Source of the DNA: Escherichia phage ECP2304
Reading direction: 5' to 3' (one strand)
Sequence record: OR880647.1
DNA: 63,590 nt
In this document: positions 1-63,590 of the stretch, in pieces
Position numbering within the stretch: position 1 is the first letter of the stretch
Layout: each line of letters begins with the position of its first letter
Notes under the pieces: generated by a model
Told to the model about the DNA's origin: nothing
The model's input: the letters and a program-made list of their open reading frames with translations, nothing else
Database searches by the model: none
Made by a program: the position numbers and the translations under genes

Positions 1-441
1 GAATAATTTATTCCTACTTGATAGAATAATGGAATCGGTACTCCAGAGCGCAAAAACCTAAAACTTTCAGTCAACAGACTAAAAACGGATAGAAACTAAA
101 AGTTAATAAGTAATAACATAAATATATATAAAATAAGGATTTATTAGTAATGTATATAGTACCTATTGGTATTATTTGAATGTTTTTGGGTCATTGTTAA
201 AAAGTCCCAAAACTCACAAAAAGTGAAAGAATACAATTCGTGACAGGATTGTTAATGGAATAAGGTGTATGGATATACAGTATTATTCCAGATTCCGGAA
301 TAATTGGAATAATGGAATAAATTATTGAACTATTGTGATCGGAAGGTATATCAAGCTATAATGCGCTTAATCGCGGGATATTGGAGGAGGACTTTATTGC
401 GCGGTTAACCGGACCAGTAGGAGGGCTGGCCCGGAAGTAGT

Positions 442-768
442 TTAGAGCTGTACAGGTGTGAAGTGGGCTAGCGTATCGTCGGACATAATACCCGACAGTT
501 TTTCGTTTACCCAGTCGGACCAAATGCTATCCGGTTCCTGGCGGTGCACAAACCAGATTTCGGATGTGCCTTCTTTGCGCATCGGTTGCACTTCTGCAAG
601 GAACTTGTCCTGCATAAGGCGCGTGAAGCAGACGCTGGTCATTGGAACCGGCTTTTCGTCTTTATTGTAATAAGGGACCAATATTTTATTTCCGAAGTCT
701 GCAACTTCATAAACTGTTCCTTTGCGAAGGCCTCTGATGTCAGTGTAAGAGCGGATGAACTTTTTCAT
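442..768 (-). CDS. hypothetical protein (108 aa)
   Basis: ATG start, clean ORF in minus-strand gene string inside repeat. Confidence 0.5.
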   Translation of the reverse strand: MKKFIRSYTDIRGLRKGTVYEVADFGNKILVPYYNKDEKPVPMTSVCFTRLMQDKFLAEVQPMRKEGTSEIWFVHRQEPDSIWSDWVNEKLSGIMSDDTLAHFTPVQL

Positions 769-770
769 AT

Positions 771-947
771 TTATTTCCTTACGAACACAGAGCCGACGAA
801 TAATGTTGATTGAGTTGCAGCTTGCTCGATTAATTCGCCAACAAGCTGGGACTGCGTCAGAGGTTTAAGGCCTTCTTTGGCGCGAGCTTCATTTACACGA
901 CGTTGAAGGTCTTTTAGGTATTGAGTTGCGAAACTATCTAATTGCAT
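771..947 (-). CDS. small hypothetical protein (58 aa)
   Basis: ATG at 945-947 preceded by AAGGA RBS; stop 771-773; below track size cutoff. Confidence 0.4.
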   Translation of the reverse strand: MQLDSFATQYLKDLQRRVNEARAKEGLKPLTQSQLVGELIEQAATQSTLFVGSVFVRK

Positions 948-996
948 CTTCTTATCCTTAGGGCTCCCGCAGAAGCCCGTTGAATGTGGTTATCGA

Positions 997-1146
997 CTAT
1001 AACGCTGCAAACATAAGCAGACGAATATTAACTGAAGTTTGGCTATTAAAGTCTTGACATTCTTTGATAATCTCTTCTTCACTTTTACCACTAAGTTTAG
1101 AATATTCTGTGATTGCTTGTTTTAATACAGAATCAAAATTGTTCAT
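997..1146 (-). CDS. small hypothetical protein (49 aa)
   Basis: ATG at 1144-1146 preceded by AAGGAGG RBS; translated by hand to TAG at 997-999. Confidence 0.45.
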   Translation of the reverse strand: MNNFDSVLKQAITEYSKLSGKSEEEIIKECQDFNSQTSVNIRLLMFAAL

Positions 1147-1156
1147 TTTATCCTCC

Positions 1157-1771
1157 TTATGCGTCCAGACCGTTGTATTTGCGCCAGGCGTAGAACTGAA
1201 TGGCGACAGTTGTTCCGTTGTAAGAAGGCATTGCAGCTTTCATCTCTTTCAGCGCCGGCGTGCGGCCCAGTTCCTTCAGAAGCTTGTCACCCATTGCCCA
1301 CACTTCGGCAGTTTTTCCTTTAAGGGGCTTGCGAGCGCCATTTTTGAAATCGCAGCGAGCAGCTTTTGCATCCTGTTTTGGAGCGGCAGCTTTTGGCTCT
1401 TCAATTTTGATTTCAGAAACCTGCGTGGCAGCTTTTGCGTGTTTCATATCTTTCTCTTCCTCCTGCTCCAAAGCTTTGAGGCAGCTTTTGACGATTTCCG
1501 GATTTACCATCGGGCGCAGTACCGAGGCGCTAGCAGCTGGAGCGGCGGTCGGTGCTGGGGCTTTCTGCTCCGGCTTTTGAGCTTTTTCGTGATCGCGCAG
1601 CACCTGAAGGACTTCCTTTTCGACGATGTAAAAACCGATATCGTCCTGATGGATAAGCTGTTCGTGTGCGTCGCGTGCAACCTGGCCCCAGCGAGTTTTC
1701 AGAGCGCGGCGTGCATTCGTTTTCATGGTGTAGCGCATTTTGTCCTGTTCGCGGTGAGTTACTTTAGACAT
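1157..1771 (-). CDS. hypothetical protein (204 aa), basic N-terminus and Ala/Pro-rich linker
   Basis: ATG at 1769-1771 preceded by AAAGGAG RBS; in-frame with track ORF 1157..1816. Confidence 0.6.
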   Translation of the reverse strand: MSKVTHREQDKMRYTMKTNARRALKTRWGQVARDAHEQLIHQDDIGFYIVEKEVLQVLRDHEKAQKPEQKAPAPTAAPAASASVLRPMVNPEIVKSCLKALEQEEEKDMKHAKAATQVSEIKIEEPKAAAPKQDAKAARCDFKNGARKPLKGKTAEVWAMGDKLLKELGRTPALKEMKAAMPSYNGTTVAIQFYAWRKYNGLDA

Positions 1772-1844
1772 GGTATAGCTCCTTTCGTTAATGTTAGTTT
1801 GCTTATTACTGCCCACCGTAATGATGAGCAGTGTATAAGAAAAC

Positions 1845-2093
1845 TTACTGCACGATTGCTACGAAATCGGCGGTTGCGATATCCATGCTTGCAAACGCTT
1901 TGACGGTGTAGCTGGTATCTGCCGCGGCGTTGAAGTCGCTCAGGAACTGTTGTACCGCGTGCTCATGGTTGAGCATTACGTCTACATTGCAGTCCCAGCT
2001 ATAAACCTTGCGCTGACCGAAACCTTTAACTGCAATACGCGCGCCTTTGGTGTTGGTTGGTGCCAAAAATTTGGTGACGATAGAAGTAGCCAT
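1845..2093 (-). CDS. hypothetical protein (82 aa)
   Basis: ATG with GAGGA RBS. Confidence 0.55.
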   Translation of the reverse strand: MATSIVTKFLAPTNTKGARIAVKGFGQRKVYSWDCNVDVMLNHEHAVQQFLSDFNAAADTSYTVKAFASMDIATADFVAIVQ

Positions 2094-2166
2094 GATGTAA
2101 TCCTCGTTTTGTTTAAGTTGACTTATTATTGCCCAGTCAGATCAACTAGGCAAGATATAAATCAGC

Positions 2167-2391
2167 TTATTTAACCATCAAGGCCCATCTTTTATAGCCG
2201 TTCAGCTCCATTCTATGACCGTGGTCGTTGCAGTAACGTTGGATATTATTAAAGTCGTTATCGTTCATATCGCTGACGTCAATATTAAAATAGTTGCGCT
2301 TTGCAGGTGTAACGTATTGGGATAACTGCATTGAGTACAGATGTTCAATGTTGTCGATAATAGCTTGCTGAACTTTAGTGATAGTAGCCAT
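2167..2391 (-). CDS. hypothetical protein (74 aa)
   Basis: Internal ATG at 2389-2391 preceded by GGAGGTG RBS; track ORF extends to 2451. Confidence 0.5.
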   Translation of the reverse strand: MATITKVQQAIIDNIEHLYSMQLSQYVTPAKRNYFNIDVSDMNDNDFNNIQRYCNDHGHRMELNGYKRWALMVK

Positions 2392-2781
2392 GATACACCT
2401 CCTAATGTGGTTAAGCAGTATTGCTTTGTTGAAGTAATAATAGCCTTGCATCGTGATATTGAATAGGCCAAACGTGCTATTTTGATATTGTTTTGCATCT
2501 AGTGAAAATCATGCTTGTATCGCATATTTAGCACTAATGGCCTAACTAACATCACACGATCTGGTCTACGCGCGTGCATACATACATATAAGGAGTGCCG
2601 GACAGGATCGGACCGACCAGGGGCGCTCAACCGTCTCTGTCCGTCCTGTAAGCTGGTCCCCGGACTGGTCCAAAATATTTTTATAAAAAGATGCAAAAAG
2701 GTGTAGACATATGATCAATCTAACCCTACTATATACACATACCGCAAGGGTACTACAAATTAACTTAAAGGGGTTTACATC

Positions 2782-2985
2782 ATGTCTATTCGTAGCGTTA
2801 TCTGTGTAATGGTTGCAAACAATAATTTTGGTTTCGTAGAAGGTGCAGAGTATAAAATGGATCTTAAGACTCGTTGCATTATTAAAGGTGAAGAGGAATG
2901 GCGTGCAGTGGTAGAAGATCGCGGCGATATCTACATCTATAGTTCTGATACAATGAAAACTATTGCCGTCTTCGAATTTAACTAA
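2782..2985 (+). CDS. hypothetical protein (67 aa)
   Basis: ATG with AAAGGGG RBS; first plus-strand gene after divergent intergenic region. Confidence 0.55.
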   Translation: MSIRSVICVMVANNNFGFVEGAEYKMDLKTRCIIKGEEEWRAVVEDRGDIYIYSSDTMKTIAVFEFN

Positions 2986-3053
2986 GCTAACTTATACAAT
3001 GGGCATTAGTACAGTGCCCATTAATAAGCTAACTAATTATAACGAGGTGTATT

Positions 3054-3239
3054 ATGTCTACGAACACTGTGAAGTCTGTAAATAATAGCAACAGAACATT
3101 TAAAGTTATCTATTATGGCGAATATATTGGAGACGTTACAGCTCCCAGCCGCATCGCTGCGGAAGACTTCGTCCGTACAGAGATGGAGCTTGGAATCGCC
3201 GATTTTGCAGCCATTATCGAACTGGTAGAGGTATTCTGA
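3054..3239 (+). CDS. hypothetical protein (61 aa)
   Basis: ATG with GAGGTG RBS. Confidence 0.5.
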   Translation: MSTNTVKSVNNSNRTFKVIYYGEYIGDVTAPSRIAAEDFVRTEMELGIADFAAIIELVEVF

Positions 3240-3240
3240 T

Positions 3241-3381
3241 ATGCAACGCAAATACACGCTTACACGCGCACAGCACGCGTTATTGATTGCAGCTATGCGC
3301 GCAGAATATGCAGTACACGGCTGGCATAGCGCCATGATGCGAGGTAAAAGCATATATGCAGACATATGCTCGCAAGAATAA
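3241..3381 (+). CDS. small hypothetical protein (46 aa)
   Basis: TGAtATG coupling to upstream gene; hand-translated to TAA at 3379-3381. Confidence 0.35.
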   Translation: MQRKYTLTRAQHALLIAAMRAEYAVHGWHSAMMRGKSIYADICSQE

Positions 3382-3944
3382 CGCACACAGCAGCACCACA
3401 GCGAGCTAAAGCTCAAAGGTAATGGTAATGCATTACCAACACACAATAAGCACGCTGTACCCAGCAAAGCGGCGCTAATTTCAACACTCACAGGCTGTAC
3501 GTTAACGCGTACGGCCTGCTCTGCTATATGCACGCCATGTATATAGCCAGCTCACAATGCACATCAATATAATTACGAATGAAATGGATTCGTCTGGAAG
3601 AATAACAATTCTTACAGTCACAGACCGGTCCAATGAGCCAACTCATAGACCCCACCTAGGATCATCAGGGTACTAATAATCACCCGAGGGCCCTTATCCA
3701 TCCTGATAGTAAGTGCTTGCCTAAATCTTACCCATCACTTTACTATCCACATACATCCATGACCCCACCTACCTTCTTTTTGAATATATTGCGCTCATCC
3801 TTTCTAAATATATGGATTTTGGTAGTAAATTCTGAGTCGTCAACGTATAATCCGTCTTGTAGCTGCCCCATAGCTACCATCTTTAAGCGGATGCAACCAA
3901 TTTCTATCAATTCTCACCAGTTTTAGAGCATCAAGGAGGTATTT

Positions 3945-28136: not shown

Positions 28137-28260
28137 AATTACTCCAACAATGTGGTTAAAGATGGTAGACAATATTGTTTTATATTCTAATTTAATTTAC
28201 CATATTTGTATGCCATAGTGCATCCATTAATTGATCAACTCTGCGAAACAAGAGGTAAAA

Positions 28261-55555: not shown

Positions 55556-55600
55556 ACAACTTTAGACTTGAAATACATCTATAAAATAGCACGATTTGCC

Positions 55601-55629
55601 TTTACATCTGATCAGTCTAACTGTACTAT
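55601..55629 (+). promoter_or_regulatory. sigma70-like promoter for plus-strand island gene
   Basis: TTTACA, 17-nt spacer, TACTAT; GGAGGA RBS and ATG follow. Confidence 0.35.
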
Positions 55630-55910: not shown

Positions 55911-58247
55911 TTATTTGCTTAAGTCCTTGAAAACACTCTCAATTGACTCGTCTATATACCATCCCAATCCCCTGAAATTACGCTTCAACGCATCTTCACG
56001 CGTGACTGGAACGAGCGCACCCATGTCTACAAGTTGCTTGATGGTAAGGTCTGTTGCAGTACCTGCTCCCATCCTGTGATTCTTGAATGCTGCTAGACCG
56101 TAGGTTCTGCGTGTGATAGTTGCCTTTGGAATAATACCGTCAACGCGCAGCTCCTTACGATCACATGCAATCTTACCGCCAAGATAGTCTTTGCAGACCT
56201 GACAGATAGCCTTCACACGTGTTTCGTCATCACCGCCAATAGTACCTTTTTCCCATGCGTTGATCATAATGTCCTGACCGTGCGTAACAAAATCTACCGC
56301 CCATTGCATGTGGTTTGGTTGCACCACAGGATTGATCCAGTTTTCCCCCACCGCTAACAGAGAAGCAAGACGCAAAGCTTTAAGGTGTGCACGGTTCCAA
56401 GGCTGACGGATTGCTTCGTCTTTGGTTGCGTTAATGTGTTCGTCACATAACAGGTTAAACTCCCGTTCAATCCTTTCAGCTTCAGGACTTAACTGGACTG
56501 TGACAGTTTGAAACTTCGCCATTGTTACTAAGGTGTGGTTAACAAGATGGCACACCATGTCCTTTAACTGCTGGGGCATTATAATCTCAGGGTTTTCGTT
56601 TGCAGGAACTCGATCTCCTTCATATTGCACAATGTGGAAACGGGACAAGAAACCGTCTTCCATCATTTCACGGGTTAATGCTTCAAAGAAAGTGTCCGGT
56701 GTTGTTTCTCCCAGCACGCTGAACGCTACCCCTTCCATCGTTTTGGTATTATTAGCCTTATCAGAATATCCAATACCGCCAACAACATCCATTGCGCCAG
56801 ATTTTTGATATACATCTGTGATAGTTTGCTTCAGAGTATAGTTTGCAGTACCGGGCTGAGCTGTTGCCATACCTTTGATGGTTTTGCCAAACTCTCCGTT
56901 AATGTTCACAAACGAACTATGATCCGCAAAACTTTTACGCAATGCAGGACCGGACGCATAGTTAGTCATGTCTACAAATTCATGAACTTGCGGTAATTGC
57001 TCCCCTACTTGCTTGCAAATATAGCTGGGTCCGGCGTGAAGCATCTCTTTACCCACACCTGAGCGAGCGATAAGCACAAAGTAACCGTTCAGCCCTGTGT
57101 TGGTGATAGTATTCCATACCTTACCGCACACACCAGACAGAAATGCTAACGATGCGGTGATTGCAATTTCTTTCACGGGACGTTGCGATGCTTTGTAGAT
57201 GTACTTCGCAAGCTCCCCAGCAAGCCCCGGCGGCCACTCAATAGCGGTTGCATCAATAGACGTACTTTCTGCAACTACTATTTGACCGGAAGGACTAACT
57301 GTGGTTACAGGCATCTCTGTTACTTGCTGCATTGTGCTGTGTGCGGCTTGCATACGGGCAGCATAATCTCGCGCCAGCGCCGCTACGTTTTCCTGGGCAA
57401 TGCGCTCACGCTCCATGCGACCGCGGCACATCCGCAAACAACGGTCAATATGAACATTGTTCTTATTAGCCTTCTCACGTTTGCCCAGTGCACTGTAACG
57501 GAACAGACGGCGACATTGCTCATTACTTTCTGTATAGAATGCATACATAGAAATAAGAGCAAGGTCTGCTTCAGACTGGGAAGGGAATCCCATTTCAACC
57601 CATTCACCATTGAATAGGCGTGCATACTTATCCCCGTTGTCCGCTTCAAGCGCGCGCTGGTGAATAGTTGCATCGTCTTCTACCGGATCTTTTTCTACCA
57701 GTTCAATTTCATATGTCTTGCGCTGAAGATCAATTTCATTCACAAGCATAGTAAGATAATGATCGCGTTCGGCAACTGGTTTGTTATAGACAGGATTACC
57801 CGTGCAGATAATAAAACGCTCCTGACTATAAACTTCGACACCATCACGTCGACGACCTTTGCCGATGTTTCCTCTTAACCACAGGTGAACACCCAAGCCT
57901 GAGCGACTTACTTCGGTGTAAGTATCGAACGCGGTCATGATCTGTTCGAAGCGGCGCAACTGTTCCGGCGTCGTGTGCTTCTTGGGATCTGGTTCATTGG
58001 TTGCGTTCTTTACATCCAGGTCGATGCAGGTGAACGGGTCTTGTGCAGTAAGCACGAAGCCTATATAAGGTTTGTTGAAATGAGCAGCACAACCTTTGGC
58101 AGCTTCAAACGTCATAAGCATATCCGGATCGGTAACGTCCGCTGCCATCAAACGTCCGATATCGTTGTCCCATATTAATGGGCGTTTATCTTCACCAGCA
58201 ATAGCCCACTGATTGTATTGTTTAATTTCATCAGGAAATAATTTCAT
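55911..58247 (-). CDS. DNA primase-helicase (PrimPol-like N-terminus, SF3/D5-like helicase C-terminus)
   Basis: 778 aa; acidic DxD-type motif TCIDLDV, GVHLW; Walker A ARSGVGKE; ATG at 58245-58247. Confidence 0.6.
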   Translation of the reverse strand: MKLFPDEIKQYNQWAIAGEDKRPLIWDNDIGRLMAADVTDPDMLMTFEAAKGCAAHFNKPYIGFVLTAQDPFTCIDLDVKNATNEPDPKKHTTPEQLRRFEQIMTAFDTYTEVSRSGLGVHLWLRGNIGKGRRRDGVEVYSQERFIICTGNPVYNKPVAERDHYLTMLVNEIDLQRKTYEIELVEKDPVEDDATIHQRALEADNGDKYARLFNGEWVEMGFPSQSEADLALISMYAFYTESNEQCRRLFRYSALGKREKANKNNVHIDRCLRMCRGRMERERIAQENVAALARDYAARMQAAHSTMQQVTEMPVTTVSPSGQIVVAESTSIDATAIEWPPGLAGELAKYIYKASQRPVKEIAITASLAFLSGVCGKVWNTITNTGLNGYFVLIARSGVGKEMLHAGPSYICKQVGEQLPQVHEFVDMTNYASGPALRKSFADHSSFVNINGEFGKTIKGMATAQPGTANYTLKQTITDVYQKSGAMDVVGGIGYSDKANNTKTMEGVAFSVLGETTPDTFFEALTREMMEDGFLSRFHIVQYEGDRVPANENPEIIMPQQLKDMVCHLVNHTLVTMAKFQTVTVQLSPEAERIEREFNLLCDEHINATKDEAIRQPWNRAHLKALRLASLLAVGENWINPVVQPNHMQWAVDFVTHGQDIMINAWEKGTIGGDDETRVKAICQVCKDYLGGKIACDRKELRVDGIIPKATITRRTYGLAAFKNHRMGAGTATDLTIKQLVDMGALVPVTREDALKRNFRGLGWYIDESIESVFKDLSK

Positions 58248-58248
58248 C

Positions 58249-58773
58249 TTATACACCCAATTTGTTACAACCGTGGTTCTTGTGAAAATTGTAATCGGTT
58301 AATGCTTTACTTACAGCCATTTGTGCATCTTCAAAAGTATCGTATACTCCAAGATATTTTGAAGTCCCGTCGACGCCTATACGAGCTTGCCATTTATTAG
58401 TACCTTTGTGAAATGTAACTCCATTTACTCCAGAGGTATTATTGCGTTTCTTACTTTGATTTCGTCCATTTTCTTTGTGAGTAACAAGACGCAAGTTTTC
58501 AATGCGGTCGTCGTAACGAATGTGATTAATATGGTCTATTTCCATACCTTCCGGTATTGGACCATTATGCATTTCCCATACTATGCGTGAACGGCGATAT
58601 AGTTTGCCTTTAAGAGCAATACGAACATATCCTTTATCCGTAAGCGTACCTGCAACGCAACCTTCTTTCGCTCTTGCGCCCATATCTTTCTTCCAATACA
58701 ACACTCCTTCATTATATTGGAATATTACCGCCCATTGTGGGAAAGCTTTAATTTCAGCGGGAAACAGTTCCAT
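58249..58773 (-). CDS. HNH homing endonuclease with AP2 DNA-binding domain
   Basis: HNH motif EIDHINHIRYDDRIENLRLVTHKEN; AP2-like SGVNGVTFHKGTNKWQARI. Confidence 0.7.
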   Translation of the reverse strand: MELFPAEIKAFPQWAVIFQYNEGVLYWKKDMGARAKEGCVAGTLTDKGYVRIALKGKLYRRSRIVWEMHNGPIPEGMEIDHINHIRYDDRIENLRLVTHKENGRNQSKKRNNTSGVNGVTFHKGTNKWQARIGVDGTSKYLGVYDTFEDAQMAVSKALTDYNFHKNHGCNKLGV

Positions 58774-59613: not shown

Positions 59614-59704
59614 GAAAGTTTTGGGTAGGAATAGTTGGTGCTCCACAGTTTGCGCAATGTGACCGAAAGTTTTGTGAGTTTTGCGAAGTTTTGCGAAGTT
59701 TTGT
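59614..59704. repeat. Array of GA(A)AGTTTTG direct repeats in right-end non-coding region
   Basis: Five copies including tandem GCGAAGTTTTGCGAAGTTTTG at 59681-59701. Confidence 0.7.
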
Positions 59705-59787: not shown

Positions 59788-60336
59788 ACCCTAACACCCA
59801 AATCCCGACTGTTAGTAAAAAACGTATATAAATCAATAGCATAGATACTAAATGAATAGTGATTGGAATGGGTAGAAATCCAAATGATGGAAGTGGAATA
59901 ATTTATTCCTACTTGATAGAATAATGGAATCGGTACTCCAGAGCGCAAAAACCTAAAACTTTCAGTCAACAGACTAAAAACGGATAGAAACTAAAAGTTA
60001 ATAAGTAATAACATAAATATATATAAAATAAGGATTTATTAGTAATGTATATAGTACCTATTGGTATTATTTGAATGTTTTTGGGTCATTGTTAAAAAGT
60101 CCCAAAACTCACAAAAAGTGAAAGAATACAATTCGTGACAGGATTGTTAATGGAATAAGGTGTATGGATATACAGTATTATTCCAGATTCCGGAATAATT
60201 GGAATAATGGAATAAATTATTGAACTATTGTGATCGGAAGGTATATCAAGCTATAATGCGCTTAATCGCGGGATATTGGAGGAGGACTTTATTGCGCGGT
60301 TAACCGGACCAGTAGGAGGGCTGGCCCGGAAGTAGT

Positions 60337-60663
60337 TTAGAGCTGTACAGGTGTGAAGTGGGCTAGCGTATCGTCGGACATAATACCCGACAGTTTTTCG
60401 TTTACCCAGTCGGACCAAATGCTATCCGGTTCCTGGCGGTGCACAAACCAGATTTCGGATGTGCCTTCTTTGCGCATCGGTTGCACTTCTGCAAGGAACT
60501 TGTCCTGCATAAGGCGCGTGAAGCAGACGCTGGTCATTGGAACCGGCTTTTCGTCTTTATTGTAATAAGGGACCAATATTTTATTTCCGAAGTCTGCAAC
60601 TTCATAAACTGTTCCTTTGCGAAGGCCTCTGATGTCAGTGTAAGAGCGGATGAACTTTTTCAT
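60337..60663 (-). CDS. hypothetical protein (repeat copy of 442..768)
   Basis: Identical duplicate in right repeat. Confidence 0.5.
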   Translation of the reverse strand: MKKFIRSYTDIRGLRKGTVYEVADFGNKILVPYYNKDEKPVPMTSVCFTRLMQDKFLAEVQPMRKEGTSEIWFVHRQEPDSIWSDWVNEKLSGIMSDDTLAHFTPVQL

Positions 60664-60665
60664 AT

Positions 60666-60842
60666 TTATTTCCTTACGAACACAGAGCCGACGAATAATG
60701 TTGATTGAGTTGCAGCTTGCTCGATTAATTCGCCAACAAGCTGGGACTGCGTCAGAGGTTTAAGGCCTTCTTTGGCGCGAGCTTCATTTACACGACGTTG
60801 AAGGTCTTTTAGGTATTGAGTTGCGAAACTATCTAATTGCAT
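60666..60842 (-). CDS. small hypothetical protein (repeat copy of 771..947)
   Basis: Identical duplicate. Confidence 0.4.
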   Translation of the reverse strand: MQLDSFATQYLKDLQRRVNEARAKEGLKPLTQSQLVGELIEQAATQSTLFVGSVFVRK

Positions 60843-60891
60843 CTTCTTATCCTTAGGGCTCCCGCAGAAGCCCGTTGAATGTGGTTATCGA

Positions 60892-61041
60892 CTATAACGC
60901 TGCAAACATAAGCAGACGAATATTAACTGAAGTTTGGCTATTAAAGTCTTGACATTCTTTGATAATCTCTTCTTCACTTTTACCACTAAGTTTAGAATAT
61001 TCTGTGATTGCTTGTTTTAATACAGAATCAAAATTGTTCAT
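60892..61041 (-). CDS. small hypothetical protein (repeat copy of 997..1146)
   Basis: Identical duplicate. Confidence 0.45.
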   Translation of the reverse strand: MNNFDSVLKQAITEYSKLSGKSEEEIIKECQDFNSQTSVNIRLLMFAAL

Positions 61042-61051
61042 TTTATCCTCC

Positions 61052-61666
61052 TTATGCGTCCAGACCGTTGTATTTGCGCCAGGCGTAGAACTGAATGGCG
61101 ACAGTTGTTCCGTTGTAAGAAGGCATTGCAGCTTTCATCTCTTTCAGCGCCGGCGTGCGGCCCAGTTCCTTCAGAAGCTTGTCACCCATTGCCCACACTT
61201 CGGCAGTTTTTCCTTTAAGGGGCTTGCGAGCGCCATTTTTGAAATCGCAGCGAGCAGCTTTTGCATCCTGTTTTGGAGCGGCAGCTTTTGGCTCTTCAAT
61301 TTTGATTTCAGAAACCTGCGTGGCAGCTTTTGCGTGTTTCATATCTTTCTCTTCCTCCTGCTCCAAAGCTTTGAGGCAGCTTTTGACGATTTCCGGATTT
61401 ACCATCGGGCGCAGTACCGAGGCGCTAGCAGCTGGAGCGGCGGTCGGTGCTGGGGCTTTCTGCTCCGGCTTTTGAGCTTTTTCGTGATCGCGCAGCACCT
61501 GAAGGACTTCCTTTTCGACGATGTAAAAACCGATATCGTCCTGATGGATAAGCTGTTCGTGTGCGTCGCGTGCAACCTGGCCCCAGCGAGTTTTCAGAGC
61601 GCGGCGTGCATTCGTTTTCATGGTGTAGCGCATTTTGTCCTGTTCGCGGTGAGTTACTTTAGACAT
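61052..61666 (-). CDS. hypothetical protein (repeat copy of 1157..1771)
   Basis: Identical duplicate. Confidence 0.6.
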   Translation of the reverse strand: MSKVTHREQDKMRYTMKTNARRALKTRWGQVARDAHEQLIHQDDIGFYIVEKEVLQVLRDHEKAQKPEQKAPAPTAAPAASASVLRPMVNPEIVKSCLKALEQEEEKDMKHAKAATQVSEIKIEEPKAAAPKQDAKAARCDFKNGARKPLKGKTAEVWAMGDKLLKELGRTPALKEMKAAMPSYNGTTVAIQFYAWRKYNGLDA

Positions 61667-61739
61667 GGTATAGCTCCTTTCGTTAATGTTAGTTTGCTTA
61701 TTACTGCCCACCGTAATGATGAGCAGTGTATAAGAAAAC

Positions 61740-61988
61740 TTACTGCACGATTGCTACGAAATCGGCGGTTGCGATATCCATGCTTGCAAACGCTTTGACG
61801 GTGTAGCTGGTATCTGCCGCGGCGTTGAAGTCGCTCAGGAACTGTTGTACCGCGTGCTCATGGTTGAGCATTACGTCTACATTGCAGTCCCAGCTATAAA
61901 CCTTGCGCTGACCGAAACCTTTAACTGCAATACGCGCGCCTTTGGTGTTGGTTGGTGCCAAAAATTTGGTGACGATAGAAGTAGCCAT
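61740..61988 (-). CDS. hypothetical protein (repeat copy of 1845..2093)
   Basis: Identical duplicate. Confidence 0.55.
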   Translation of the reverse strand: MATSIVTKFLAPTNTKGARIAVKGFGQRKVYSWDCNVDVMLNHEHAVQQFLSDFNAAADTSYTVKAFASMDIATADFVAIVQ

Positions 61989-62061
61989 GATGTAATCCTC
62001 GTTTTGTTTAAGTTGACTTATTATTGCCCAGTCAGATCAACTAGGCAAGATATAAATCAGC

Positions 62062-62286
62062 TTATTTAACCATCAAGGCCCATCTTTTATAGCCGTTCAG
62101 CTCCATTCTATGACCGTGGTCGTTGCAGTAACGTTGGATATTATTAAAGTCGTTATCGTTCATATCGCTGACGTCAATATTAAAATAGTTGCGCTTTGCA
62201 GGTGTAACGTATTGGGATAACTGCATTGAGTACAGATGTTCAATGTTGTCGATAATAGCTTGCTGAACTTTAGTGATAGTAGCCAT
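62062..62286 (-). CDS. hypothetical protein (repeat copy of 2167..2391)
   Basis: Identical duplicate. Confidence 0.5.
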   Translation of the reverse strand: MATITKVQQAIIDNIEHLYSMQLSQYVTPAKRNYFNIDVSDMNDNDFNNIQRYCNDHGHRMELNGYKRWALMVK

Positions 62287-62676
62287 GATACACCTCCTAA
62301 TGTGGTTAAGCAGTATTGCTTTGTTGAAGTAATAATAGCCTTGCATCGTGATATTGAATAGGCCAAACGTGCTATTTTGATATTGTTTTGCATCTAGTGA
62401 AAATCATGCTTGTATCGCATATTTAGCACTAATGGCCTAACTAACATCACACGATCTGGTCTACGCGCGTGCATACATACATATAAGGAGTGCCGGACAG
62501 GATCGGACCGACCAGGGGCGCTCAACCGTCTCTGTCCGTCCTGTAAGCTGGTCCCCGGACTGGTCCAAAATATTTTTATAAAAAGATGCAAAAAGGTGTA
62601 GACATATGATCAATCTAACCCTACTATATACACATACCGCAAGGGTACTACAAATTAACTTAAAGGGGTTTACATC

Positions 62677-62880
62677 ATGTCTATTCGTAGCGTTATCTGT
62701 GTAATGGTTGCAAACAATAATTTTGGTTTCGTAGAAGGTGCAGAGTATAAAATGGATCTTAAGACTCGTTGCATTATTAAAGGTGAAGAGGAATGGCGTG
62801 CAGTGGTAGAAGATCGCGGCGATATCTACATCTATAGTTCTGATACAATGAAAACTATTGCCGTCTTCGAATTTAACTAA
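62677..62880 (+). CDS. hypothetical protein (repeat copy of 2782..2985)
   Basis: Identical duplicate. Confidence 0.55.
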   Translation: MSIRSVICVMVANNNFGFVEGAEYKMDLKTRCIIKGEEEWRAVVEDRGDIYIYSSDTMKTIAVFEFN

Positions 62881-62948
62881 GCTAACTTATACAATGGGCA
62901 TTAGTACAGTGCCCATTAATAAGCTAACTAATTATAACGAGGTGTATT

Positions 62949-63134
62949 ATGTCTACGAACACTGTGAAGTCTGTAAATAATAGCAACAGAACATTTAAAG
63001 TTATCTATTATGGCGAATATATTGGAGACGTTACAGCTCCCAGCCGCATCGCTGCGGAAGACTTCGTCCGTACAGAGATGGAGCTTGGAATCGCCGATTT
63101 TGCAGCCATTATCGAACTGGTAGAGGTATTCTGA
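62949..63134 (+). CDS. hypothetical protein (repeat copy of 3054..3239)
   Basis: Identical duplicate. Confidence 0.5.
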   Translation: MSTNTVKSVNNSNRTFKVIYYGEYIGDVTAPSRIAAEDFVRTEMELGIADFAAIIELVEVF

Positions 63135-63135
63135 T

Positions 63136-63276
63136 ATGCAACGCAAATACACGCTTACACGCGCACAGCACGCGTTATTGATTGCAGCTATGCGCGCAGA
63201 ATATGCAGTACACGGCTGGCATAGCGCCATGATGCGAGGTAAAAGCATATATGCAGACATATGCTCGCAAGAATAA
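63136..63276 (+). CDS. small hypothetical protein (repeat copy of 3241..3381)
   Basis: Identical duplicate. Confidence 0.35.
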   Translation: MQRKYTLTRAQHALLIAAMRAEYAVHGWHSAMMRGKSIYADICSQE

Positions 63277-63590
63277 CGCACACAGCAGCACCACAGCGAG
63301 CTAAAGCTCAAAGGTAATGGTAATGCATTACCAACACACAATAAGCACGCTGTACCCAGCAAAGCGGCGCTAATTTCAACACTCACAGGCTGTACGTTAA
63401 CGCGTACGGCCTGCTCTGCTATATGCACGCCATGTATATAGCCAGCTCACAATGCACATCAATATAATTACGAATGAAATGGATTCGTCTGGAAGAATAA
63501 CAATTCTTACAGTCACAGACCGGTCCAATGAGCCAACTCATAGACCCCACCTAGGATCATCAGGGTACTAATAATCACCCGAGGGCCCTT

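Follow-up and report, generated by a model that had tools for sequence, protein, structure and literature searches.

A GC-rich island in the divergent control region of Escherichia phage ECP2304 as a possible remnant of a variable repeat array

Repeat arrays in phage control regions and the ECP2304 island

Repeat arrays in the control regions of phages are well known. Here we describe a GC-rich island of 79 nt at positions 2593–2671 (+ strand) of Escherichia phage ECP2304 (OR880647.1; the whole stretch of 63,590 nt that was analysed is called the window), the contracted local version of a repeat cassette with an ACCAGG core. The array to which it belongs looks like a new member of the control-region repeats, with unusually variable presence and copy number, and we tentatively read the island as part of a dispensable array of protein-binding DNA repeats, operator- or iteron-like, that is mostly decayed in this phage. 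Among the described systems, the iteron arrays of the lambda ori, P4 ori/crr and SaPI ori are similar in that copies of a ~20-bp motif stand in the same orientation with variable spacers, adjoin an AT-rich tract and lie in a control region, in replicons with a primase-helicase gene of their own. In contrast to iterons, the array described here is irregularly spaced (26–37 bp), is missing in about half of the close relatives and is reduced to a single core in the window, and we know of no iteron to which it has sequence similarity. Phage operator clusters (Mu O1–O3, the direct repeats of the P2 C repressor, lambda OR/OL) likewise place repeated motifs between the divergent promoters of two arms, and here too an alternative module, the Seurat-type palindrome described below, is found in the same slot of relatives. 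However, the sites of our array do not overlap the promoter hexamers but precede them, the motif is mostly non-palindromic (a TACCAGGTA core is present in some units only) and these phages are lytic. The temperate-like layout was already remarked upon by the authors of the 9g genome paper (PMC4276943).

RNA elements offer a further comparison. Tandem-repeat RNA decoys (phiTE pseudo-ToxI against ToxIN; RNA anti-CRISPRs) are also dispensable tandem arrays of varying copy number in an early region, and the Nonagvirus version of the array lies downstream of a plausible promoter; unlike those decoys, the units here are heterogeneous, resemble no host repeat, and show neither a fold or covariation signal nor a terminator. 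Phage leader RNAs (lambda nut, HK022 put) share a GC-rich, hairpin-capable segment near a promoter, at the start of a long operon with internal hairpins, whereas the island lies upstream of the conserved promoter, has no conserved hairpin and is absent from relatives in which the operon is kept. Term searches of the Seuratvirus comparative-genomics paper and the BASEL paper returned no mention of the array, and the part of the 9g paper that deals with its 603-bp intergenic region describes only two predicted promoters (PMC4276943).

The island lies between a leftward gene (2167–2391, start at 2391) and a rightward gene (2782–2985, start at 2782). Its GC content is 67%, compared with 44% for the genome and 35–39% for the flanks, and equally GC-rich segments of 79 nt make up 0.19% of all such segments, so that the first-pass annotation, which had marked a GC-rich island in an AT-rich divergent control region, was correct in both coordinates and composition. 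The inverted repeats on which that annotation had based its case are present: CGGACAG at 2599–2605 pairs with CTGTCCG at 2637–2643, and GGACC at 2610 is accompanied by GGTCC at 2655 and 2667. They are, however, no more than composition predicts, with ~0.3 inverted repeats of 7 nt expected per 79 nt at the composition of the island by our own estimate. The annotation had itself listed a lack of their conservation in what would refute it, and on this point the argument fails, as the conserved feature is a direct-repeat core (…ACCAGG…). A binding site for a regulator, which had also been proposed, is plausible, not via the inverted repeats but via this core, which is common to Nonagvirus. The word GACCAG/CTGGTC occurs four times in 2555–2675 (121 nt) compared to 0.053 expected, in a post hoc test whose expectation comes from the genome-wide frequency with no correction for local GC; one of the four is an outlying inverted half-core, CTGGTC at 2561–2566 (GACCAG on the − strand).

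A modular array of variable length

The window was placed in Seuratvirus (Queuovirinae) by megablast, with SeppeHuegi and KS_W4 as the nearest relatives at ~94% identity. Seuratvirus genomes contain, between the invariant blocks …CATACATATAA and AAAATATTTTTATAAAAAG…, a cassette of varying length, which measures 79 nt in the window, SeppeHuegi and KS_W4, 103 nt in SA126VB, 113 nt in Greed, 142 nt in CAjan and Dru_SM1, and 162 nt in SLUR25 and GottfriedDienst. It is reduced to at most 8 nt (AAGCTGCC) in Skure, slur01, yong3, KS_S4, SA80RD and one IMG/VR contig. Blast hits point to KS_A8, CSP1, CSP1C and SLUR63 as carriers too and to additional empty sites, and overall about half of the Seuratvirus records are without the array. 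The longer cassettes consist of three or four modules in the same orientation, spaced 27–37 bp apart, each containing ACCAGG without variation, preceded by a conserved 5′ flank (three to four copies are found in CAjan, Dru_SM1, Greed, SLUR25 and GottfriedDienst). From 34 distinct unit instances we derived the family core GYSGRAnnTACCAGGKRG, which extends with the flank to …GTGTGCCGGAnnTACCAGGKRG; the units have only these ~20 nt in common and are heterogeneous beyond them, some containing the palindrome TACCAGGTA or CTACCAGGTAG.

When the island is aligned with the 162-nt arrays of SLUR25 and GottfriedDienst, head matches head and tail matches tail; judged from this alignment, it is a contraction of a multi-unit array, made of the head and the last unit of a SLUR25-like array. 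The first module is represented by a degenerate head (GTGCCGGACAGG, 2595–2606, + strand), which aligns with the head GCGCCGGACCAG of SLUR25 and SA126VB and corresponds to the stretch GGTGTGCCGGA in CAjan and Nonagvirus. A single canonical core is retained (TCGGACCGACCAGGGGCG, 2608–2625, + strand, with ACCAGG at 2616–2621), which matches the family core and is the same in SeppeHuegi. The body and tail of the last module (2616–2659, + strand) have their orthologue in the unit that ends the SLUR25, SLUR63 and GottfriedDienst arrays, with 93% identity over 44 nt to SLUR25 and GottfriedDienst. The remainder is a lineage-specific duplication of 12 nt (CCGGACTGGTCC, 2660–2671, + strand; direct repeat CTGGTCC at 2653 and 2665, spacing 12), found in the window, SeppeHuegi, KS_W4 and SA126VB and not in SLUR25 or GottfriedDienst. 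In total, the window keeps one canonical core, the degenerate head and three inverted half-cores, and Tandem Repeats Finder (TRF) detected no array in it. As only one canonical core and three inverted half-cores are left, any activity of the island in this phage is probably weak. The phages with empty sites probably arose through further deletion, because the vestige AAGCTGCC at these sites resembles the island tail AAGCTGGTCC. In the loci inspected, no adjacent gene follows the array in being present or missing.

A protein-coding cassette was rejected on the length differences, which are not multiples of 3; the open reading frames across the island start with TTG and are not conserved. Hypothetical-protein coding sequences are annotated over the cassette in the public records of CAjan (1737–1946) and KS_W4 (1132–1416), and these are probably spurious, as the length variation does not follow multiples of 3 and the cassette is absent in relatives. 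A dispersed mobile element of the MITE or REP type was likewise rejected: the only other copy lies in the terminal repeat, the sequence otherwise occurs only at the same site in relatives, and the empty sites look like deletions with a vestige of the tail, not like clean excisions.

Arrays of the same family are found at the syntenic site in the related genus Nonagvirus, where 9g, HdK1, JenP2, SE1 and four metagenome contigs carry three modules spaced 26–27 bp apart (TRF period 27). Nearly all Nonagvirus phages carry the modules; JenP1 is without them. The 15-mer GCCGGAAATACCAGG is identical in the two genera, while the intergenic DNA outside the modules does not align between them. Elsewhere this 15-mer is a rare chance word: it has 69 matches in 2.9 million viral contigs, and the nine long contigs inspected among these contained three Nonagvirus arrays, the rest being unrelated sequence. 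The ACCAGG core does not vary in nine Nonagvirus sequences, whose substitutions lie mostly in the 5′ flank and the inter-unit spacers. The core is confined to one locus per unique genome, and elsewhere in the ECP2304 genome ACCAGG is found 7 times compared to 22 expected, a 3-fold under-representation that ranks 13 of 2,080 hexamers. A motif that is conserved in diverged relatives while its spacers vary is what is expected of a protein-binding repeat array. This pattern fits a DNA motif recognised by a protein better than a folded RNA, because it is a primary-sequence motif of fixed orientation with free spacers and a single locus per genome.

Alternatively, the island could be a neutral relic, i.e. 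the leftover of a non-functional, fast-evolving spacer shaped by slippage and illegitimate recombination at a mosaic junction, an explanation we consider doubtful but worth serious attention. Whole lineages lack the cassette, only one canonical core is left in the window, and homing endonuclease genes are scattered around the region in relatives. Furthermore, the window and SeppeHuegi differ at 10/79 positions of the island (12.7%), compared to 6/156 in the left flank and 0/110 in the right flank, and this divergence is close to that of the four-fold sites of the leftward genes (15–18% at their synonymous sites; 15% at four-fold sites overall). The identity of the DNA to the right (0/110, and 0/25 four-fold sites in the gene at 2782–2985) next to a diverged island suggests a recombination, or mosaic, boundary here. 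The substitutions are concentrated in the 3′ half of the island, and its 5′ 30 nt, which hold the head and the core, are unchanged between the two phages. What a relic does not easily account for is the comparison between genera: the core is identical in Seuratvirus and Nonagvirus though the surrounding intergenic DNA no longer aligns, its orientation and its position relative to a TAGACA promoter are kept in both, and ACCAGG stays invariant where the flank and spacers of the Nonagvirus units have changed. Such conservation is hard to obtain without selection or a recent transfer of the array itself.

Promoters of the control region and RNA structure

The position of the island was compared with the promoters of the region. 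A sigma70-type promoter for the rightward arm, P_R (TAGACA-N17-TACTAT, 2704–2732, + strand), is predicted by a consensus scan with a score of 9/12, and it is the only well-conserved rightward promoter. Its core is kept in Seurat, WildeMaa and SLUR76 although the DNA upstream is unrelated, and a near-copy that includes the spacer sequence lies at 55601–55629. An AT-rich tract (2672–2703, + strand) extends from the island to the −35 hexamer and is the same in array-carrying and array-less phages; by its position it may act as an UP element. The array ends just before a TAGACA −35 hexamer in both genera, across this AT-rich tract in Seuratvirus and at a distance of 12 nt in 9g, where the downstream site reads TAGACA-18-GATAGT, so that by position it adjoins a promoter in both cases. 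In Seurat, WildeMaa and SLUR76, a palindrome, ATGTCA-N5-TGACAT, is found 20–45 nt upstream of the −35 hexamer of P_R, and its presence in the array slot suggests that the regulatory modules are interchangeable.

As the island lies at about −147 to −69 relative to the predicted start of P_R, it is not part of the leader of the P_R transcript. This bears on the proposal of the first-pass annotation that the island is a structured RNA leader for the rightward early transcript, for which it had named RNA folding and covariation in related phages among its checks. Folded alone, the island gave z scores against dinucleotide shuffles of −0.34 (+ strand) and +0.67 (− strand), not above chance, and with its flanks −1.67 and +0.16, respectively. 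No significant fold was found on either strand in nine phages (z from −2.1 to +1.3). In the Seuratvirus alignment 0/29 pairs of the window's minimum-energy fold showed compensatory changes, with a paired fraction not above that of shuffles, and in the Nonagvirus consensus fold 0/42 pairs covaried (eight distinct sequences), tests whose power is limited by the low sequence diversity. The main stem of the window fold is disrupted in SeppeHuegi and KS_W4, the closest relatives, and many close relatives do not have the element at all. Together, these results do not support a structured island and speak against a leader. The label 'early' is also doubtful, because the rightward arm runs through small genes to those for endolysin, holin, spanin, terS, terL and portal, i.e. 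to lysis and packaging.

A different transcribed element could still start further upstream, with the array as the 5′ part of a non-coding RNA or leader that serves as a sponge or decoy, in antitermination or as an attenuator. In Nonagvirus, 28 nt separate the first unit from the end of a sigma70-like promoter upstream (TTTAGA-18-CATAAT, an annotated promoter in the 9g record), and in the CAjan lineage what looks from the sequence like a decayed promoter module ends ~24 nt before the first unit. The fold z scores of the + strand are negative in 8 of the 9 phages (−2.0 to +0.2), and a few substitutions in the 3′ hairpin (CTGGTCC..GGACTGG compared with ACTGGTCC..GGACCAGT) are, by eye, G-U-compatible on the + strand only. 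We nevertheless regard this explanation as unlikely, given the absence of a significant fold or compensatory pair noted above. In the window lineage the upstream promoter-like module is without a usable −10, and the sequence offers no convincing promoter reading into the island. An intrinsic terminator (GC-rich hairpin followed by a T run) was found neither at the island nor at the CAjan and 9g arrays. The window has no Rfam match at gathering thresholds, the arrays of four array-carrying relatives have none at E up to 5, and scans for tRNA and tmRNA found none in the window. Type III antitoxin and CRISPR arrays consist of near-identical repeats, unlike the heterogeneous units seen here.

No host counterpart was found either. 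Mimicry of a host locus was rejected, as 5,426 E. coli genomes contain no similarity; in genomes of 185,579 species there were chance matches only, with the two-unit pattern not found in Enterobacteriaceae, and metagenomes gave chance matches only apart from the four Nonagvirus contigs. The lack of any host sequence similar to the arrays speaks against their being mimics of an RNA array of the host. A search for the three-unit TACCAGG pattern in viral contigs was swamped by evidently unrelated repetitive matches, and the loci it returned were without the extended core. A CsrA sponge was rejected because the + strand has GGA and its complement TCC in roughly equal numbers, which the GGACC/GGTCC palindromes would lead one to expect, and because the GGA motifs are located in predicted stems. 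The island contains no DnaA, IHF, Fis or CRP sites; Chi, sigma54, ECF-promoter and boxA/boxB elements, compared by eye with the consensus sequences, each fail on spacing or by at least two mismatches. T7-type primase sites (TGGTC) are not kept in the Nonagvirus units, which read TGGTA, and a phage-specific promoter at ACATACATATAAGG was dismissed as the sequence does not recur in the genome.

The leftward side of the control region has an arrangement of its own. A leftward promoter P_L probably lies at 2437–2479 (− strand), with the elements TAGCAC-GTTT-GGCC, TATTCA, N17 and TATTAT laid out as in the Seurat P_R and at 55587–55629; its −35 hexamer is weak, and hence it was missed by the consensus scan. 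The 16-bp sequence TAGCAC-N4-GGCCTA forms a perfect inverted pair, with one copy at 2464–2479 (− strand) that adjoins the putative P_L and the other at 2529–2544 (+ strand), which has no usable −10 downstream in the window lineage. A third copy with 2 mismatches (55587–55602, + strand) stands directly upstream of the P_R-like promoter at 55601–55629. The sequence seems to be a component of a shared promoter or operator module.

Further elements are seen around the promoters of relatives. In 9g (1580–1600) and at the matching Nonagvirus sites, a palindrome ACTATACTG-GA-CAGTATAGT lies just downstream of TAGACA-18-GATAGT, and in HdK1-type sequences its hairpin is kept in a shifted register after 2–3 substitutions. 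WildeMaa (~1935–2170) and SA80RD (~1270–1500) carry a GC-richer non-coding block of ~230 nt downstream of the P_R core, which is absent from the window and could be a leader or small RNA; in WildeMaa it matches no Rfam family at E up to 5.

Genome ends, replication and possible roles of the array

Self-comparison of the window revealed an exact direct terminal repeat of 3,695 bp (1–3695 = 59896–63590), and therefore the island is present twice per genome, with an identical second copy in the right-hand repeat at 62488–62566 (+ strand). A repeat of 3,367 bp is also present in the record of the Nonagvirus HdK1, and its right boundary, …GGGGCGGCTC|TTAGATC, matches the read-end hotspot described for 9g by Kulikov et al. 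at position 28,243 (PMC4276943). Because of this match, the terminal repeats in Queuovirinae are probably the physical ends of the genome. The word GGAATAAT occurs 14 times in the window compared to 2.6 expected, clustered toward the left end; copies are found at 282–313 (also 60177–60208) and at 59895–59902, exactly on the left boundary of the terminal repeat, making it a candidate terminus or terminase recognition signal. A non-coding tandem repeat with an iteron-like look, AAGTTTTGCG in 3.8 copies, lies at 59667–59703, ~190 nt left of the same boundary.

As the array lies inside the terminal repeat, it could be a packaging or terminus signal, a site recognised by the terminase, and the Nonagvirus array comes as close as ~230 bp to the right repeat boundary, the 9g hotspot mentioned above (PMC4276943). 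In the window, this distance to the boundary at 3695 is ~1,025 bp. Moreover, the array is absent from many viable relatives, implying normal packaging without it, and other repeats (GGAATAAT and AAGTTTTGCG, at the positions given above) lie right at the boundaries. A role in packaging is thus highly improbable.

A replication origin deserves more consideration, though we think it improbable too. The leftward arm, continued via the right-hand repeat, contains a protein of 781 aa (55911–58256, − strand) with the helix-bundle domain of NrS-1-type primase-polymerases and a DUF3987 domain, which PHROGs groups with DNA primases and primase/helicases. This PrimPol-helicase is a possible origin-binding initiator. 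In such an origin, the units would be iterons bound by a phage initiator of this kind, the AT-rich tract would serve as the unwinding element, and activation would come from the divergent promoters. Examples of primase-helicase initiators that bind iterons are P4 alpha and the SaPI Rep proteins. The array has the direct, mostly non-palindromic repeats of ~20 bp in 3–4 copies, AT-rich tracts adjoin it in both genera, and it is a unique locus between divergent promoters in a genome that encodes an NrS-1-type PrimPol with a DUF3987 domain. However, about half of the Seuratvirus records lack the array and no substitute is seen at the site, its unit spacing is irregular, the AT-rich tract is equally explained as an UP element and is kept in array-less phages, and the AAGTTTTGCG and GGAATAAT clusters are equally possible cis sites. 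An origin could be dispensable in lytic phages through recombination-dependent replication or secondary origins, and T7 and T4 can each do without any one of their primary origins.

The reading that we favour, tentatively, is that the array acts as DNA, its units forming a cluster of sites to which a sequence-specific protein binds. Occupancy of these promoter-adjacent sites would tune the firing of the rightward arm, with its lysis and packaging genes, against that of the leftward arm, which serves replication, and the array would be an accessory element, deleted in whole lineages. In its favour, the cassette varies between invariant flanks, the array adjoins a TAGACA promoter in both genera, and the Seurat-type palindrome takes the same slot. 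Several observations weigh against it. The neighbouring small proteins have no recognisable DNA-binding domain (no match in Pfam, in PHROG functions or in the PDB indicated DNA binding), and no candidate binding protein is found among them. The units are irregularly spaced, and the −35 hexamer lies at a different distance from the array in each of the two genera. The array cannot be essential, since it is missing from about half of the Seuratvirus records and from JenP1. The island diverges about as fast as the silent sites of the leftward genes, which fits constraint that is weak at best in this lineage. ACCAAG is as depleted in the genome as ACCAGG, and codon usage may contribute to both. 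Finally, transcription of the array is conceivable, the sigma70 promoter 28 nt upstream of the Nonagvirus array being plausible.

Avoided words were also seen in the unique genome (1–59895) outside this context. Palindromic hexamers of the restriction type are strongly avoided, with CTGCAG found 0 times compared to 44 expected, GGTACC 0 to 24, GCATGC 0 to 16 and CAGCTG 10 to 50, and among non-palindromic words CCCAGA (1 to 16) and ACCAAG (7 to 22) are depleted along with ACCAGG (7 to 22).

A bolder proposal, to which we give a low probability, is that the array serves Queuovirinae as a functional, accessory cis-element of variable copy number, either a dispensable origin for the PrimPol-helicase or a DNA or RNA decoy that titrates a host factor or defence protein. 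If so, the gains and losses of units would be adaptive, and the window would stand for a state close to switched off.

Queuovirinae (9g, CAjan and several BASEL phages) are models for 7-deazaguanine DNA modification, and little is known about the control of their transcription, replication and packaging. The control region laid out here consists of a conserved promoter module, an inverted TAGCAC-N4-GGCCTA pair and a slot upstream of P_R, which is filled by an ACCAGG-core array, by an unrelated palindrome or by nothing. The island of ECP2304 is a remnant with one surviving core rather than a riboswitch-like leader, and the natural alleles of zero to four units in cultured phages make the function of the array directly testable.

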